From assembly GCA_963828195.1 (NCBI GenBank), contig CAWHDT010000003.1, positions 32,001-96,000 of the forward strand: a stretch of 64,000 bases of DNA, in the 5' to 3' direction. The notes beneath the pieces were generated by a model, which did no database searches, was not told the origin of the DNA, and saw nothing but the letters and a program-made list of their open reading frames with translations. The DNA comes from Candidatus Bathyarchaeota archaeon (lineage in GTDB: Archaea; Thermoproteota; Bathyarchaeia; Bathyarchaeales; Bathycorpusculaceae). The position numbers and the translations under genes are program-made. Each line of letters starts with the position of its first letter. The first letter of the stretch is position 1. This document shows, one piece after another, positions 41,534-45,455 of this stretch.

Positions 41534-41690
41534 AAATCAACTAACCCCTAAGCAACCCCTATCTTCTTTTGCTTTTCACATCTTAAACACAGCAAAGTTA
41601 GGGCTTATCGAGGTTTCTGTCGGCGCTTTGTTTGGATTTTGTTTGTTGTGCGTTGGGTTGCTTTTTTGGTTTAGCGTTTGTTTTTTTGGC

Positions 41691-41760
41691 AGGTTGCGTT
41701 TTTTCCCGTTCGCTTCCGTTGTATCCCGTTGTTTCCCGTTGAACGCCGTTTCTATCCGTT
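41691..41760 (+). repeat. 10-bp-period tandem array NNNNNCCGTT
   Basis: Six units ending in CCGTT (41701-41760) plus one ending in GCGTT. Confidence 0.85.
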
Positions 41761-41798
41761 TGTAAATGCCAAAGCAAGAAGAAATAAACAAGAACAAT

Positions 41799-42015
41799 AT
41801 GCCCTAACAGAAAAAGTCACCTTCACCGCCACGCTCCAAGCAGCCAACACCGTGCAGATCCCGAAGCTAATCCGTTGGCAATTCTTCTGCTCAAAAATCC
41901 GCAAAGACGACGCATAACGATCCCAAAACTGGTGCTCATCCACCTCCCAAACGAAAAAACAAACCTAACAGGCAACCCAGTAGAAATAACGCTTGAACCA
42001 GCATACCAAAAATAA
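41799..42015 (+). pseudogene. decayed double AbrB/SpoVT-like DNA-binding protein
   Basis: MP-LTEKVTFTATLQAANTVQIPKLIRWQF and KIRKD-RITIPKL...VEITLEPA in different frames; two frameshifts. Confidence 0.6.
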
Positions 42016-42182
42016 AAAAGACACCCCCGACAATTTGCAAAGCTGCCAACCAACCTCATAAAATAGACTATACCCAGCAAGCTTTAGTGGAAAAACTCCG
42101 AGGGAAGCATGCGGAATAACCATTGAAGGCGAAAACAAATGGAAAACTCTGATACAAAATGCGAGCAAAAACAAGCAAAATT

Positions 42183-42434
42183 CTACTCTTGCTTGACTAA
42201 GGTATAATGCCCGTAAATTATTCGTTTAATAACTCGTTCAGGCAAAATTATAGTTGTTTCTTCTATTTCAGAAGAACTGGTTTCGCCCATGCTTTTTGAA
42301 ATAACTTGATCTGGGTCAAATTTCACAAAGGAACCAACAATCTCAACGTTTTTTGTTATATACTTTACGTCACCTAGTTCAGATGTGGTTTGAATCTGGT
42401 ACCAATCAGCTTTCCATTTTTTTTCTTTAGACAA
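42183..42434 (-). CDS. small hypothetical protein (cargo of element A)
   Basis: 83 aa; AGGTGA RBS and TTATAA upstream. Confidence 0.6.
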   Translation of the reverse strand: MSKEKKWKADWYQIQTTSELGDVKYITKNVEIVGSFVKFDPDQVISKSMGETSSSEIEETTIILPERVIKRIIYGHYTLVKQE

Positions 42435-42643
42435 GATGATTCACCTAGCTAAGTTGTTCGGCATCGGAAATTATAAGTTTGCGCTAAGTTAAATAACTTA
42501 ACAGTGCCCGACAAAGTAAACAAGTAACAGACGAATTTTCACAAGATAAATCAGCAGTCACAAACTTCACAGAATCAAAGTTAGGGTTCTGTAAAGTCTC
42601 TAAGGGATAGTTCTCCATGTAAACTTTTGAGGGATAATAAAAA

Positions 42644-42907
42644 CTAAGGGATTATTTTCCCATTTTCATCGTACTTCGTGATGGATACCGATTCCGTAGC
42701 ATGTGCTGTATCGTTTAAGCCAATTCCAACTGACCGAGTAGTTTTGCCACAGACATCGCACCTGTATTCGATATCTGCTTTCTGATGTAGCCCTTGTTCT
42801 GGTCTTGGAACATATTCAAGATACCCTCCATGGCTTGTTAGGTAAAGTTTGCCTTTTCCGCAAAATGGACAGCTCTCTCCTGTTAATTCTTTGATTTCAT
42901 TAACCAA
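42644..42907 (-). CDS. small zinc-ribbon protein (cargo of element B)
   Basis: CPFCG...CDVCG; GGAGG RBS. Confidence 0.7.
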   Translation of the reverse strand: MVNEIKELTGESCPFCGKGKLYLTSHGGYLEYVPRPEQGLHQKADIEYRCDVCGKTTRSVGIGLNDTAHATESVSITKYDENGKIIP

Positions 42908-43018
42908 TTAATCGCCTCCCTATTCCATTCCCTATCTTATTTCCCCTTTTTTAGGTTTTACTACTATTGAGGGAGAAAATAAGTGGAAAACCCTAATACA
43001 AAATGCCAGCAAGAAAGC

Positions 43019-43198
43019 CTAAGTCATTTTGCTGGTTAATTCACGTTTTAAATATGCTGTTACCATAGCTGGATTTTCGCCGCTCCCAACAATTGCAATT
43101 AATTCCCAACCATTTTTTCCCAATTTGTTGAGTGCCTCTACTTGTTTTGGGGCTTCATTACCCATTAGAGTAGTAACAGTGTATTCCCATTTCGCCAT
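43019..43198 (-). CDS. DUF4177-like small protein (59 aa, absent from ORF track)
   Basis: MAKWEYTV...LNKLGKNGWELIAI...AYLKRE; GAGGTGA RBS. Confidence 0.8.
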   Translation of the reverse strand: MAKWEYTVTTLMGNEAPKQVEALNKLGKNGWELIAIVGSGENPAMVTAYLKRELTSKMT

Positions 43199-43451
43199 TT
43201 TTTCACCTCACATGCTTCTTTTAATTTAGGGCTAAGTTGGCTTAAAGTTTACCGTTGCCCAAAGTAAATCAGAACCCCTTCCGACCCACCCCACAACCAG
43301 AATGTCCTTCCGAAAATTAGCAGACGAATTTTCACAAGATAAATCGGCAGACGCAGACTTCACAGAACCACAGTTAGCAAGATTTATATGATTGCAGGCT
43401 ACCTTTGCAAGATAAAAACCCTCACGGGAAATTTACAGTTAGGTGCTTAAT

Positions 43452-43757
43452 ATGTCGGCAAATGTTACACCAATTAAAGATTTGCAGAATGGAATGAAAC
43501 GGGTCAGCGTTGAAGCAAAAGTTGTTGAAAAAGGCGACCCCCGAGAAGTCAGATCACGCTTTAAAGATGAAACCTACAAAATAGTTGACGCTGTAGTTGC
43601 AGACGAAACAGGCAGCGTAAAGCTGACACTGTGGAACGAACAGATCGACCTAGTTAACGTGGGCGACAACGTCAAAATCGACAATGGCTACGTGACCAGC
43701 TTCAAAGGCGAACTTCAACTTAACGTGGGCAAATTCGGAAAACTAGTCGTTGGGTAA
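43452..43757 (+). CDS. ssb: single OB-fold ssDNA-binding protein
   Basis: IKDL, VEAKVVEKG, VADETGSVKLTLW, NGYV..FKGELQLNVGKFG. Confidence 0.88.
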   Translation: MSANVTPIKDLQNGMKRVSVEAKVVEKGDPREVRSRFKDETYKIVDAVVADETGSVKLTLWNEQIDLVNVGDNVKIDNGYVTSFKGELQLNVGKFGKLVVG

Positions 43758-43928
43758 AAACTCAATCAATAATGCCTCTTTTCTATTTTAATGATTTTTT
43801 TGTTTTTTCAAATGTTTTAAGACACGGTCTATTGGCGCCTAAAATGGGCTCGGATTTAGTCAAGAAATCTTGTGGCAATGAATCTTTACAAAAACTCTCT
43901 TAAGAGCACACGCAATACCGTTAATTGA

Positions 43929-45455
43929 GTGAGTGTTATGGCAAAGACCAAGGCTTTTTTGAGCGCATTTTTGATTGTCCTTATGGTTAGCGGGTTAGCT
44001 TTCGTTGGTACGATGCATTTTGGGGCGGCTCAAAGCGGCACAGACGTAAGTTACATAATAAGTCAAGATTCTACGTGGACGCCTGCAGGTAATCCATATA
44101 CGCTTACAGGTGACACTCTTGTGTATCAAGGGGTAACATTAACCATCGAGCCAGGCGTCACAGTGAATCTTGGAAGCTACTACATCGAAGTAAACGGCAC
44201 CCTAAACGCAGTCGGCGGTCCATCTGACAAGATAACCTTCAACGGCGGACAAATAACATTCACCGCTTCCAGCAACGGTTGGAATGAACAGACCGATTCC
44301 GGCTGCATAATCGAAAACTCCATTATCGACCAAACTTCAATATCCAGCATCAACCCCATAAAAATTGATAGCTGCATCATAAACACCCAAATCACCGTCG
44401 CTTCGTCAATAATAACAAACAACATAGTAACTGGCAACATTAATAGCCAATCAGCAATACCAACATTGGGGCAGACTAATGCCCCCGTAGATACATCGGT
44501 AATTTCAGGCAATAACGTCAACGGTAACATAATTGTTGGGGCAGTCTCTTTAGGCGCCATTACAGCACCTTCAGAAGCATGCACAGTTTCCGACAACACA
44601 GTTACGGGTTCAATCATATCGGGCAGCCCCCAAGGTACACCTCAAATATTCAACAATACCGTCAGTGGGGGAGGAACCGAGGGAGGAATCGTGTGTGTTG
44701 GTTATGGCTCTATTTTTAACAATTACGTCTATGGATGCCAGGAGGGCATTAATCTTTTCACTGAGAGAGTTTTCGGCGGTGAACTTCCCTGTTACGCAAC
44801 AGTCGAAAACAACTTGGCAGTCGATAATACTCAAGGCATCAACATTGAGCTTACTTCCGTTTTTGGACCCGGCACCATATGTCCCACAGTTCTAAACAAC
44901 ACAATTTCAGGAAATTCCGTCGGAATATACCTATCTGAGAACTATTACAATTCAACGCCAACCATTCAATATAACAATCTGCAAAACAACTCCAACTACA
45001 ATTTTAACTTAGCCGCACCCAACAACATCGATTTGACCTACAATTGGTGGGGAACAACCGACCCGTCAGCTATCAGCAGCTCAATTTACGATTACAACCA
45101 AGACTTCAATTTAGGTCAAGTAACCTTTACGCCTTTCTTGACCGCTCCAAACCCCGAAGCCGCTTTAAACCCAAATGAGCCAATACCAACGCCAGCGCCT
45201 ACCTCAACCCCAGTGCAGTCTACAGGTCCATCTACTAACCAAACATCAACACAATCGCCGAATCCCCCTTCTTCAACGCCTTCGAAAACCGCTCCTTCAT
45301 CAAGCGCTTCTCCCAGCTCGTCGCCTTTAGCTTTACAATCGCAGAAACCGAGCTCATCGCTACCCACATGGCTGATAGTTGCAGCCGTCGTGATAGCCTT
45401 CATAGTAGTGGCAATTGGAGCATTCTCGTTAGGAAAGAGAGCAAGACCGAAATAG
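43929..45455 (+). CDS. secreted beta-helix surface protein with Pro/Ser/Thr linker and C-terminal anchor
   Basis: WTPAGNPY, LTIEPGV, NWWGTTD, IYD, PFL; PST-rich tail followed by TM. Confidence 0.85.
   Translation: MSVMAKTKAFLSAFLIVLMVSGLAFVGTMHFGAAQSGTDVSYIISQDSTWTPAGNPYTLTGDTLVYQGVTLTIEPGVTVNLGSYYIEVNGTLNAVGGPSDKITFNGGQITFTASSNGWNEQTDSGCIIENSIIDQTSISSINPIKIDSCIINTQITVASSIITNNIVTGNINSQSAIPTLGQTNAPVDTSVISGNNVNGNIIVGAVSLGAITAPSEACTVSDNTVTGSIISGSPQGTPQIFNNTVSGGGTEGGIVCVGYGSIFNNYVYGCQEGINLFTERVFGGELPCYATVENNLAVDNTQGINIELTSVFGPGTICPTVLNNTISGNSVGIYLSENYYNSTPTIQYNNLQNNSNYNFNLAAPNNIDLTYNWWGTTDPSAISSSIYDYNQDFNLGQVTFTPFLTAPNPEAALNPNEPIPTPAPTSTPVQSTGPSTNQTSTQSPNPPSSTPSKTAPSSSASPSSSPLALQSQKPSSSLPTWLIVAAVVIAFIVVAIGAFSLGKRARPK

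Follow-up and report, generated by a model that had tools for sequence, protein, structure and literature searches.

Stacked, decayed IS6-family insertion sequences at one 8-bp target upstream of an Ssb-like gene in a Bathyarchaeota genome suggest promoter-anchored target choice

Insertion sequences (IS) of the IS6 family occur in Archaea, including Pyrococcus furiosus, and MICs and MITEs, which lack a transposase gene, are families with several copies. In Ty3 and Tf1 of yeasts, the promoter or the transcription machinery sets where integration takes place, and the same sites are hit repeatedly. According to the sections of the IS6 review used here, members of the family are typically about 800 bp long with one ORF, and ISDsp3 is the single named member with a passenger gene (PMC7986276). 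TnGBS, ISLre2 and the ISKra4 group have been described to insert upstream of sigma-A promoters, 15-17 bp from the -35 box; for the archaeal ISH6, the portions of the source used here mention duplication of an AT-rich motif and no fixed distance to a TATA box (PMC3942029).

The window, a stretch of 64,000 nucleotides from a Candidatus Bathyarchaeota archaeon (contig CAWHDT010000003.1, positions 32,001 to 96,000), contained two abutting elements (hereinafter referred to as A and B) lying among three copies of an 8-mer, upstream of an Ssb-like gene. The segment 41602-43369 is read here, with a probability of about 0.8, as two elements of the IS6 lineage, stacked head to tail, that hit the same 8-mer twice through promoter-set targeting, B after A. 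The features of the locus were as follows, in window positions.

41594..41601, no strand: T1, the leftmost 8-bp target copy (AAAGTTAG), continuous with native upstream DNA
41602..42576, plus strand: element A, a decayed IS6-family element of 975 bp; right end kept, no recognisable left inverted repeat
41627..41760, plus strand: dispersed non-coding repeat in A, followed by short CCGTT-type repeats; core TTGGGTTGCTTTTTTGGTTT at 41653-41672
41799..42015, plus strand: small-protein pseudogene in A with a frameshift at codon 3, an internal deletion and a stop; the gene follows the dispersed repeat at other loci
42020..42169, plus strand: transposase gene stub in A, covering roughly the final 50 codons and broken by a frameshift and a stop
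42183..42434, minus strand: 83-aa passenger ORF in A, no family match
42522..42576, plus strand: right end of A, with the terminal inverted repeat ACTTCACAGAATC at 42564-42576
42577..42584, no strand: T2, the middle 8-bp target copy (AAAGTTAG), the "spacer" of the apparent 13-8-13 site
42585..43369, plus strand: element B, an IS6-family element of 785 bp with both inverted repeats; transposase gene internally deleted
42644..42907, minus strand: 87-aa ORF in B with two CxxC pairs, zinc-ribbon-like
42963..43019, plus strand: transposase gene stub in B, the last 19 codons, TIEGENKWKTLIQNASKKA; 89% over 19 aa to the transposase of contig C1 (tblastn)
43019..43198, minus strand: 59-aa ORF in B, an Sp36-family/DUF4177-like small protein by profile searches
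43315..43369, plus strand: right end of B, with the terminal inverted repeat AGACTTCACAGAACC at 43355-43369
43370..43377, no strand: T3, the rightmost 8-bp target copy (ACAGTTAG), abutting the putative promoter
43378..43394, plus strand: BRE/TATA-like element CAAGATTTATATGATTG; the TATA-like box, 43383-43390, starts 6 bp past T3
43443..43757, plus strand: Ssb-like OB-fold gene, presumably driven by the preceding element (Pfam Ssb-like_OB, 56.8 bits, cut-off 24); the ATG at 43452 is the likelier start

The three 8-mer cores that a preliminary description had placed at 41594, 42577 and 43370 were verified in both string and coordinates, and the complementary junction arms, the inverted ends of B and the right ends shared by the two elements were all re-found. 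The junction reads ACTTCACAGAATC-AAAGTTAG-GGTTCTGTAAAGT, with 11 of 13 arm positions complementary, and the ends of B (42585-42599 and 43355-43369) were complementary at 14 of 15 positions (93%). The 8-mers on either side of A were identical (8/8), and those on either side of B matched at 7/8. Both outer cores had been described as carrying an arm on the inner side only; this held for the right one, but the left core (41594) had none, since 41602-41614 matched the inverted-repeat 13-mer at only 6/13 positions (our count). A search for the left inverted repeat of A gave nothing at 41602 and a weak GGTTTCTGT 9 bp inside, and 41602-41636 had no other copy in the genome.

The right ends of A and B shared a repeat of about 57-63 nt with 87-89% identity (63 nt and 87% with the core included). 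A second repeat common to the two elements (42119-42171 versus 42963-43015; about 50 nt, 83-85%) proved to be a remnant of a transposase gene that codes for the C-terminus, equivalent to the 3' end of transposase ORFs at other loci; the presence of this remnant in both elements indicates that the enzyme was once encoded. When the C4 and C1 transposases were used as tblastn queries, the stub in A was also recovered (61% over 51 aa and 86% over 29 aa). The locus had been said to hold tiny ORFs on one strand and no enzyme; the 83-, 87- and 59-aa ORFs were indeed all on the minus strand, but the transposase stubs had been missed. The cargo ORFs and left parts of A and B were unrelated.

The apparent 13-8-13 site consists of the inverted repeats of two elements, the right one of A and the left one of B, with a shared 8-bp duplication between them. 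When the 64-kb window was scanned loosely for the arm (up to 2 mismatches), five matches were obtained where 2.88 were expected, and five were reached in 16 of 100 shuffles; this count is not above chance and proves nothing alone. The arm signal is nevertheless real because the 13-mer was found exactly at four other IS ends in the genome, the 8-mers around A agree at 8/8 positions, and 41602-43369 is missing from relatives. Public soil metagenome contigs, from runs of three studies, spanned all three junctions with no differences; one may come from the window's own source sample. The contigs of X1-X4 showed no joints, and none of them had this strain's site empty or occupied by a single element; the sole metagenome contig with an empty site had 2 differences in 35 letters and resembled other species of the genus.

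Seven full-length transposase copies were identified in the genome by tblastn. The enzyme is a DDE protein of 372-377 aa, scoring 67.2 bits with Pfam DDE_Tnp_IS240 (cut-off 27) and 128.1 bits with NCBIfam transpos_IS6 (cut-off 125). Full-length elements included the following.

C1:296460-298893, 2434 bp
C6:18214-20647, 2434 bp, identical to the element in C1
C4:105826-109934
C8:160229-164069

Their ends were of the GGTTCTGT(A/G)AAGT type, with one C1/C6 end reading GGAACTGTAAAGT, and each element was flanked by a perfect 8-bp duplication, all four being different (CTCTCTCT, TCGAACAG, TAATAAAG and TCCAAAAT). The autonomous copies called for in the preliminary description were thereby located as transposase-bearing elements, and the duplications varied between loci, as it had proposed for a DDE transposase. 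The left 48 nt or so of B resembled the left end of the full-length C1/C6 IS.

Features of the IS6 family were compared with these elements. Short terminal inverted repeats were present in the full-length copies and at both ends of B, and in A at the right end only. Perfect 8-bp duplications were found at the C1, C6, C4 and C8 elements, in a relative (G021) and at six stacked loci. The full-length copies were not compact single-ORF elements (about 0.7-1.8 kb): they measured 2434-4997 bp, and passenger ORFs, from one to several per element, lay to either side of the transposase gene. This departure from the IS6 norm is a difference of cargo, not of transposition apparatus. Replicative transposition, with cointegrates that are later resolved, would fit the simple insertions and their duplications. 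A CxC...CxH motif was visible in the transposase N-terminus; a SWIM-type zinc finger was considered for this region and rejected, with no Pfam SWIM match (E<=0.01) and NCBIfam zinc-binding domains below threshold. An AbrB/MazE-like assignment of a 61-aa ORF in the full-length IS was likewise dropped, at 18.3 bits in Pfam (cut-off 24.7).

The core of the dispersed repeat in A had 32 matches in the genome (up to 2 mismatches), and the repeat itself was 96% identical over 105 nt to C5:698024-698128. The pseudogene that follows was recognised by eye, through comparison with G020:C25 and with two intact copies of 89 and 127 aa, found in C5 and C4. These intact paralogues matched no Pfam family, and an AbrB/MazE-like guess for this left small gene was therefore discarded. 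The 83-aa ORF had a 91% identical copy (82 aa aligned) in another genome (G016:C4); no IS end (up to 2 mismatches) was found in the 4-kb locus around that homologue, so the gene is not established as IS cargo there. The 87-aa ORF of B gave sub-threshold scores only, with Pfam Lar_restr_allev (18.1 bits, cut-off 28.6) and TIGR03655 (21.7, cut-off 39.6), and the 59-aa ORF scored 53.5 bits with NCBIfam Sp36_fam (cut-off 50) and 23.5 bits with Pfam DUF4177 (cut-off 25).

Neither A, B nor their three ORFs had a second copy in the genome, and no copy of A or B as a unit was found in 40 other genomes searched, where only pieces common to the IS family and the 83-aa gene were seen. Together with the transposase stubs, this single-copy state makes A and B look like decayed insertion sequences and not like a mobile cassette family, and it suggests relics, not an active family; the terms "cassette system" and "mini-elements" used previously were overstated. 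An origin of A and B as non-autonomous cassettes (MIC/MITE-like, with cargo) that arrived without a transposase and were moved in trans is unlikely, with the same single-copy state speaking against it, but several observations are in its favour. B, which is transposase-less, has both IS ends (14/15) and a 7/8 duplication, as expected of a MITE or MIC; A does not show this combination. The perfect 8-mer beside the missing left repeat of A is not easily given by a two-ended insertion followed by decay, and would be easier to obtain if A had inserted in its present form via a surrogate left end. The seven transposase copies are present in the same genome, and two relatives (G127 and G013) have similar short relics, in which the left repeat and the right end are kept together with a stub of the transposase C-terminus. 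However, neither A nor B occurred in several copies at different loci, and the stubs show descent from full-length elements by deletion. Any movement of A or B would rely on transposase supplied in trans by the full-length copies.

The stacked IS6 elements could be set against unoccupied loci. The stretch 41602-43369 was missing from relatives, in which homology picked up at 43371, and the left flank up to and including T1 aligned with their empty sites (e.g., ...ggcGCAGTTAGgcaagattt). The predicted empty site was found, as the upstream gene followed by (N)NAGTTAG-CAAGATTTATATGATTG with nothing between, in 9 of 9 relatives' loci of a first alignment and in 18 of 20 loci with the promoter motif. 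G098, the sister of the present genome (G000) on a UvrB tree, has the empty site. Further, IS6-type elements were located at exactly this 8-mer in three other genomes. G013 carried two stacked elements, of which the promoter-side one encodes an intact transposase and is flanked by a perfect GAAGTTAG duplication; G021 carried one 2972-bp element with an intact transposase and a perfect CGAGTTAG duplication; and in G127 an 892-bp relic abutted the same 8-mer. The three did not form a clade with G000 on the UvrB tree (a single gene, 30 genomes), where the four occupied genomes need four changes and well-supported branches force at least three. The ...AGTTAG 8-mer was used six times in four genomes.

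Stacks were also found elsewhere in the genus. The pattern ACAGAAYC-N8-GGTTCTGT (up to one mismatch) was detected in 19 of 120 genomes, and the same pattern with an N10 spacing in 3 of 120. An exact-match survey of spacers from N0 to N30 gave four sites for N8, two each for N6 and N7, three for N18 and one for N23; the three N18 sites are near-identical and probably orthologous. At six further loci, the same 8-mer was also present on the other side of one stacked partner, and in G013 and other stacks the two partners were different elements. In 8 of 8 stacks, the element with a verified duplication adjoined the TATA-like flank, where a partner was scored as complete when its duplication was located within the fetched DNA and two contigs ended inside the distal partner.

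The CAAGATTTATATGATTG element (up to 2 mismatches) was present in 20 of 30 relatives' loci, the remaining 10 being too short to reach it; its position and conservation point to a promoter function. Among 12 insertions examined, outward ORFs began 39-84 nt from the IS end in the nine stack or same-site insertions, and the genes beyond those ends encoded Ssb-like, TBP, LSM and proteasome-subunit proteins.

Distances between IS ends and TATA-like boxes were analyzed in two samples of IS ends of the genus, drawn in the order of listing and comprising 81 and 38 unique ends. An 8-mer with up to 2 mismatches to TTTAWATA, a consensus not derived from this organism, was counted as TATA-like. An insertion can face a promoter with one of its ends at most, and the sample includes some chance matches. 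Many insertions had no clear box, such as those in C8 and C6 of this genome. A TATA-like 8-mer started 5-7 bp past the duplication at 16 of 81 and 10 of 38 ends, and at 22 later offsets the means were 5.0 and 2.3, respectively; pooled, 26 of 119 ends had the box at +5 to +7, whereas later offsets averaged 7.3 and did not exceed 14. The observed count was reached by 0 of 2000 rotations in either sample. A putative promoter element was enriched at a fixed distance from the IS end, in the manner of TnGBS and ISLre2, in both samples. This result speaks to behaviour only, as membership of the TnGBS/ISLre2 transposase family is excluded by the IS6 match.

These data suggest that target choice in this IS6 lineage is anchored to promoters, which would explain the reuse of one 8-mer. 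We consider it somewhat probable that this archaeal lineage reads the core promoter and places its staggered cut such that the duplication stops about 5 bp before the TATA box, where the BRE begins, and that successive elements stack in front of heavily used genes (ssb, TBP, LSM and a proteasome subunit). We found neither promoter-anchored transposition in Archaea nor a cargo-carrying IS6 lineage using promoters as safe havens described in the literature.

The stack could have formed as follows. The DDE transposase would cut with an 8-bp stagger, each insertion duplicating those 8 bp, and A and B would both have taken A(A/C)AGTTAG, giving three copies. The target would be picked at a fixed distance from the promoter, the duplication ending about 5 bp upstream of the TATA-like box and just upstream of the BRE. 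After the first insertion, the TATA-side copy of the 8-mer would still be a perfect target, and the next arrival there would push the older element upstream. Because the TATA-side copy would stay a target, we infer on this promoter-anchored reading that B arrived later than A; the mismatch in the duplications (one for B, none for A) would alone make A the younger, opposite to this order. TBP/TFB-bent DNA or the sequence itself may be what the transposase recognises.

Alternatively, an incoming element may target the flank of a resident IS end, as IS26 does, and not the promoter, the position being simply where the first copy survived. The enrichment of exact 8-bp head-to-tail junctions in the genus (N8 versus N10) is in line with this, and cointegrates of IS26 form about 100-fold more often when the target already has IS26, but targeted integration of IS26 leaves no new duplication and no spacer, in the sections of the review used here (PMC7986276). 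Flank targeting also predicts arrivals on either side, whereas the verified or complete element was TATA-side in 8 of 8 stacks. It explains neither the first insertions at an identical 8-mer in lineages split by genomes with empty sites nor the +5 to +7 peak of TATA-like boxes among unstacked ends, and is quite unlikely.

The preliminary description had weighed two origins: IS-end-derived elements reusing one 8-bp target, which proved essentially right, the ends being IS6-family inverted repeats, and tyrosine-recombinase cassettes with a loxP-like site, which the present data contradict. Action of a site-specific recombinase (tyrosine, Xer/dif-like or integron-like) at a 13-8-13 site with a constant GTTAG core is highly improbable. 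Its palindromic layout and the recurrence of the ...AGTTAG 8-mer would fit, but the arms are terminal repeats of a DDE transposon, the spacer differed at each of 16 other head-to-tail junctions inspected in the genus, and duplications elsewhere were unrelated in sequence. No recombinase or integrase family was detected among 19 ORFs of at least 120 aa between 28 and 58 kb of the window (E<=1e-5). No tRNA or Rfam family was found at the site when the whole window was searched (ARAGORN; Rfam gathering thresholds). Integration targeted to a tRNA was dropped as a candidate, both tRNAs in the window, the only two, lying away from the site at 9.9 and 54.7 kb. A and B are two decayed IS6-family insertion sequences and not recombinase cassettes. 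Local tandem duplication of one element and its flanking 8-mer by slippage, with later divergence, is hardly credible: unequal exchange is expected to turn T-X-T into T-X-T-X-T, and A and B have right ends and a transposase stub in common, but their homology is limited to these parts, with cargo and left parts unrelated, and the partners differ also in G013 and other stacks.

Two stacked IS6 elements with a proposed promoter-set target can be compared with several known systems. MICs and MITEs resemble B in its two IS ends, target duplication, lack of a transposase and small cargo ORFs, and differ in that A and B are single-copy, contain transposase stubs and look like products of decay in place. 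The loxP, FRT and dif sites likewise place an 8-bp spacer between two inverted arms of 13 bp; here, in contrast, transposon ends form the arms, the spacer stems from target duplication and varies with the locus, and no recombinase was found in the ORFs at 28-58 kb. For annotation, palindromic "13-8-13" sites in Archaea can be IS6 ends that abut across a common target duplication and should not be read as recombinase sites.

With the IS6 family (IS26, IS257, IS240), the elements share the IS6-model DDE transposase, 8-bp duplications and short terminal inverted repeats, and this transposase has a putative counterpart of the zinc-binding N-terminal extension noted for the longer IS6 clade in the review sections used here (PMC7986276). 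The full-length elements here, at 2.4-5.0 kb with passenger ORFs, differ from typical members. In arrays of IS26, whole IS copies are shared without a spacer, whereas here different elements abut via an 8-bp duplication. Nor do those sections of the review (PMC7986276) describe insertion preferentially at the upstream edge of promoters, as suggested here. The family has been studied mainly through IS26 and antibiotic resistance; the archaeal branch described here routinely carries passenger genes, appears to insert at a constant spacing from TATA-like boxes, and stacks at one and the same nucleotide in separate lineages. For genome evolution, stacks of foreign small genes build up directly upstream of housekeeping promoters, and the promoters are not destroyed.

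TnGBS, ISLre2 and the ISKra4 group show the same kind of fixed-distance "safe haven" targeting as proposed here. They are Mutator-like DDE elements with an unrelated transposase, bacterial hosts, sigma-A promoters and, it is thought, a circular intermediate, whereas the present elements have an archaeal host, a TATA-like box as landmark and an IS6-type transposase. Ty3 and Tf1 differ further, being eukaryotic retroelements whose integrases are tethered by transcription factors; a role of TBP/TFB in targeting here would be pure conjecture. If confirmed, promoter anchoring would offer a test of whether an archaeal transposase senses TBP/TFB-bound DNA, and the lineage would represent an archaeal counterpart of the promoter-upstream targeting of TnGBS and ISLre2 in bacteria and of Ty3 and Tf1 in yeasts.

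The preliminary description of this locus, as two transposase-less mini-elements joined by a loxP-like 13-8-13 site, was accurate for most of its strings. The 8-mers AAAGTTAG (41594-41601 and 42577-42584) and ACAGTTAG (43370-43377) were located, the central junction read ACTTCACAGAATC-AAAGTTAG-GGTTCTGTAAAGT with 11/13 complementary arm positions, and an inverted-repeat search gave 14/15 complementary positions at the ends of element B (42585-43369). The right ends common to elements A and B extended over 63 nt (87%, core included; repeat search), and the three small ORFs (83, 87, and 59 aa) were all on the minus strand. An inner arm at the left outer 8-mer was not borne out, as 41602-41614 agreed with the 13-mer at 6/13 positions (hand count). 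A loose scan of the window alone returned 5 arm matches versus 2.88 expected, which was not above chance; the evidence for real elements comes from the comparisons below. All three junctions were bridged with 0 differences by public soil metagenome contigs, from runs of three studies, and one of these runs may be the assembly source.

A second repeat common to A and B, missed earlier, was found (42119-42171 versus 42963-43015; 83%). BLAST of the region against its own genome (G000) placed this repeat at about eight further positions, where it made up the 3' portion of a long ORF whose product ends in ...GKTPxEACGIxIEGENKWKTLIQNAS. Complete elements surrounded those ORFs, with inverted ends of the GGTTCTGT(A/G)AAGT type, except that one end of the element shared by contigs C1 and C6 deviated (GGAACTGTAAAGT). 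The relevant features are as follows.

Features of elements A and B and full-length insertion sequences (IS) of the same genome
41602-42576, element A
41627-41760, copy of a dispersed non-coding repeat, core TTGGGTTGCTTTTTTGGTTT
41799-42015, pseudogene of a small protein found after the dispersed repeat at some other loci
42020-42169, transposase stub of about 50 C-terminal codons, interrupted by a stop and a frameshift; followed in the right portion of A by the 83-aa ORF (minus strand, no family match) and the right end
42585-43369, element B, part 1: left end resembling that of the C1/C6 element; part 2: 87-aa ORF on the opposite strand with two CxxC pairs
42963-43019, element B, part 3: transposase stub, last 19 codons; part 4: 59-aa ORF (minus strand) of the Sp36 family (NCBIfam, 53.5 bits, cut-off 50), then the right end
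C1:296460-298893 and C6:18214-20647, identical full-length IS, 2434 bp
C4:105826-109934, full-length IS
C8:160229-164069, full-length IS

The four full-length elements carried perfect 8-bp duplications, all different (CTCTCTCT, TCGAACAG, TAATAAAG, and TCCAAAAT). Their 372-377 aa transposase matched Pfam DDE_Tnp_IS240 (67.2 bits, cut-off 27) and the NCBIfam IS6 equivalog (128.1 bits, cut-off 125), and seven full-length copies were present in the genome (65-100% identity to the C1 copy). From these matches, the ends, and the duplications, the elements were assigned to the IS6 family. They were unusually long because extra ORFs flanked the transposase gene on both sides. In C1/C6 and C8, one passenger was an ORF of 58-61 aa that adjoined the transposase gene but was oppositely oriented, and it gave a weak match of MazE/AbrB-like type (18 bits). 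Larger passenger ORFs of 271, 176, and 306 aa, without functional assignment, lay downstream. Two IS-end-like sequences were found in the interior of the C4 element.

The layout of B matched that of a full-length element from which the transposase gene had been deleted, and A and B are very probably IS6 relics with an 8-bp duplication common to both. The left 400 bp of A were unlike the rest of the IS and contained the dispersed repeat and the pseudogene. With this module against the left 8-mer, A may have used a substitute left end for its movement, or a rearrangement may have followed its insertion. The repeat core had 32 matches in the genome (≤2 mismatches), including C1:101081, C1:159387, C5:424357, C5:481698, C6:24401, and about 25 more; about 20 copies had pairs of GTTGCGACTTT repeats on either side, then ...ATTGTCGGTTATGGGCG, and a few were followed by other short repeats (GATAC-, AGTCA-, and CCGTT-type) and a small ORF (MPLTEKVTF...). 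The repeat has the appearance of a module family, regulatory or mobile in nature, and no Rfam family was reported at the window copy. The four relics considered independent (A, B, element 1 of genome G013, and that of genome G127) all kept the C-terminal 19-64 transposase codons and the right end, and three also kept the left repeat. Their disabling deletions seem to remove the same part, and a recurrent deletion mechanism might be involved. Further, 43857-44000, comprising the upstream region and first codons of a gene for a 508-aa secreted-looking protein (43929-45455), recurred on the same contig (C3:159313-159456, 86%) and in relatives, and is probably a paralogous 5' region.

As objects the two relics are ordinary; the interest lies in why one 8-mer was used more than once. 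The empty site predicted earlier was present in relatives. In 9/9 aligned loci, (N)NAGTTAG-CAAGATTTATATGATTG stood no more than about 100 nt past the upstream gene, without insertion, and homology with the window resumed at 43371. Among 20 loci with the promoter motif, 18 were empty, the others being those of G013 and G127; 10 further loci stopped short of the promoter and were outside this count. IS6-type ends were located at exactly the ssb position in three more genomes of the genus. G013 carried two stacked elements (AAAGTTAG / decayed element / GAAGTTAG / full-length element with intact transposase / GAAGTTAG), G021 one 2972-bp element whose transposase was intact and whose CGAGTTAG duplication was perfect, and G127 an 892-bp relic, so that the ssb 8-mer was occupied by six elements in four genomes. 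On a UvrB tree (single gene, 30 best-matching genomes), four changes of state were needed for the four occupied genomes, at least three being forced by well-supported branches, and empty sites were found in G098 and G116, the sister genomes of G000 and G013, respectively. The same 8 bp have therefore been hit repeatedly.

Similar flanks were found beyond the duplication in the window and G021 (caagatttatatg) and in six other genomes (caagacttttatattg in G070, caatattaataaatc in G130 and G019, taatattaattaag in G087, caatacttataagtc in G067, and agctatttaaatag in G020). A survey with a 14-mer end pattern gave 192 rows from 63/120 genomes, with about 34 reversed-pattern matches (hand count). Sample 1 comprised the first 80 rows listed, whatever their content, and 11 G000 ends, reduced to 81 ends after 6 abutting another IS were dropped and near-identical flanks merged; sample 2 (rows 81-120, already viewed by eye and thus not blind) added 38 unique ends. 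TTTAWATA was taken as the TATA-like consensus, and we counted 8-mers with ≤2 mismatches to it starting 5-7 bp past the duplication. Such a box was present at 16/81 ends in sample 1, versus a mean of 5.0 and a maximum of 10 for 3-wide blocks at 22 later offsets, and at 10/38 in sample 2 (mean 2.3, maximum 6); 0/2000 rotations of the flanks reached the observed count in either sample. The A/T-rich block was usually one-sided, in 5-6/8 insertions with both ends sampled (judged by eye). Read outward from the IS end, the duplication began with C in 36/81 and ended with G in 34/81, a weak C-N6-G palindromic target preference.

Beyond the TATA-like flank, an ORF pointed away from the IS. Of 12 insertions examined, nine belonged to stacks or to the same site, and in these nine the ORF began at a distance of 39-84 nt from the IS end. 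The ORF product was an Ssb-like protein in the window, G013, and G021 (family match for the window copy), TBP in G020, an LSM protein in G070, and a proteasome subunit in G019; the orthologous proteasome site was also occupied in G130 and G087 (judged by sequence). In G020, an IS6-type element of 3410 bp, whose ACTTAGCG duplication was perfect, lay directly upstream of the TATA-like box of the TBP gene (L041 (G020:C75), 1946-2586; Pfam TBP, 213 bits). Stacked IS6-type elements lay just upstream of the TATA-like box of the proteasome-subunit gene (G019:C13, G130:C11, and G087:C1; orthologous 8-mers TTGAAGCG / TCGAAGCG / GTGAACCG), which is probably a second recurrent site akin to that of ssb. 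A fixed-distance preference for TATA-like boxes in this archaeal IS6 lineage is probable.

The 8-mer reuse likely reflects a choice of target that is anchored on promoters, made by an archaeal IS6 lineage that carries cargo. About 5 bp would separate the end of the 8-bp target from the TATA-like box downstream, which would put that end at the upstream border of the expected BRE, and insertion would leave the core promoter intact. One 8-mer copy would still be correctly placed, so the next arrival would use this promoter-side copy and shift the older element upstream, which predicts a younger promoter-side partner. The cue could possibly be DNA sequence, DNA shape, or bound TBP/TFB. In 8/8 stacks (G000, G013, G020:C75, G067, G070, G019:C13, G087, and G130), the promoter-side partner had a verified duplication or intact structure, and the distal one was decayed or incompletely seen. 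The window stack fits a younger B in that both repeats were kept in B and one was lost from A; contrary to this order, the duplication of A was perfect and that of B had one mismatch.

The second hit in a stack could possibly have arisen instead by targeting of the flank of a resident IS, as described for IS26 in PMC7986276. Such targeting does not account for initial insertions into one identical nucleotide position in separate lineages, for the bias to the promoter side, or for the TATA peak at unstacked ends. We put the probability that stacking is caused by promoter anchoring rather than IS-flank targeting at about 0.55-0.6. It is also possible that A and B, most plausibly A, were already shortened when they inserted, having moved as trans-mobilised cassettes, but a further copy of A or of B was not found in G000 or the other genomes searched.

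Of the two interpretations offered earlier, IS-end-derived elements at one 8-bp target largely stood, and tyrosine-recombinase cassettes did not, as the arms are IS ends and the spacers vary. The arrangement ACAGAAYC-N8-GGTTCTGT (≤1 mismatch, at which reversed-pattern controls gave non-negligible chance matches) occurred in 19/120 genomes of the genus, versus 3/120 for identical arms with N10. Most of the 16 other N8 junctions inspected had extended IS-end sequence on both sides; the spacer differed in each, and at six loci the 8-mer was repeated at the far end of one partner (ACTTAGCG, TCTTTTGT, CTGTTTCA, CGCTTCAA, CGGTTCAC, and TCGAAGCG). The spacer is therefore a target duplication common to two neighbours, not a recombination core. 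In addition, none of 19 ORFs of ≥120 aa in 28-58 kb of the window matched a recombinase family, and neither a tRNA nor an Rfam family was found at the site. A head-to-tail junction in six genomes (G083, G094, G004, G023, G022, and G085), near-identical in its arms and spacers (TTTTCGGT, TTATCGGT, CTTTCGAT, and the 7-bp TTTCGAT), could descend from a single ancient stack, or could be an internal part that some element conserves. A local duplication was rejected, as the greater parts of A and B show no relationship.

These elements belong to the IS6 family by transposase, duplication length, and inverted ends, but their size and cargo set them apart; in the available portion of the IS6 review (PMC7986276), just one member is named as carrying a passenger gene. 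They abut through a duplication, whereas IS26 arrays share IS copies. Full-text searches of main articles returned no account of an IS that targets archaeal TATA/BRE elements at a fixed distance. In insertion behaviour they are similar to TnGBS/ISLre2/ISKra4 elements, whose insertions, according to PMC3942029, lie 15-17 bp upstream of sigma-A promoters in bacteria; the present elements differ from these in transposase family and in having an archaeal host.
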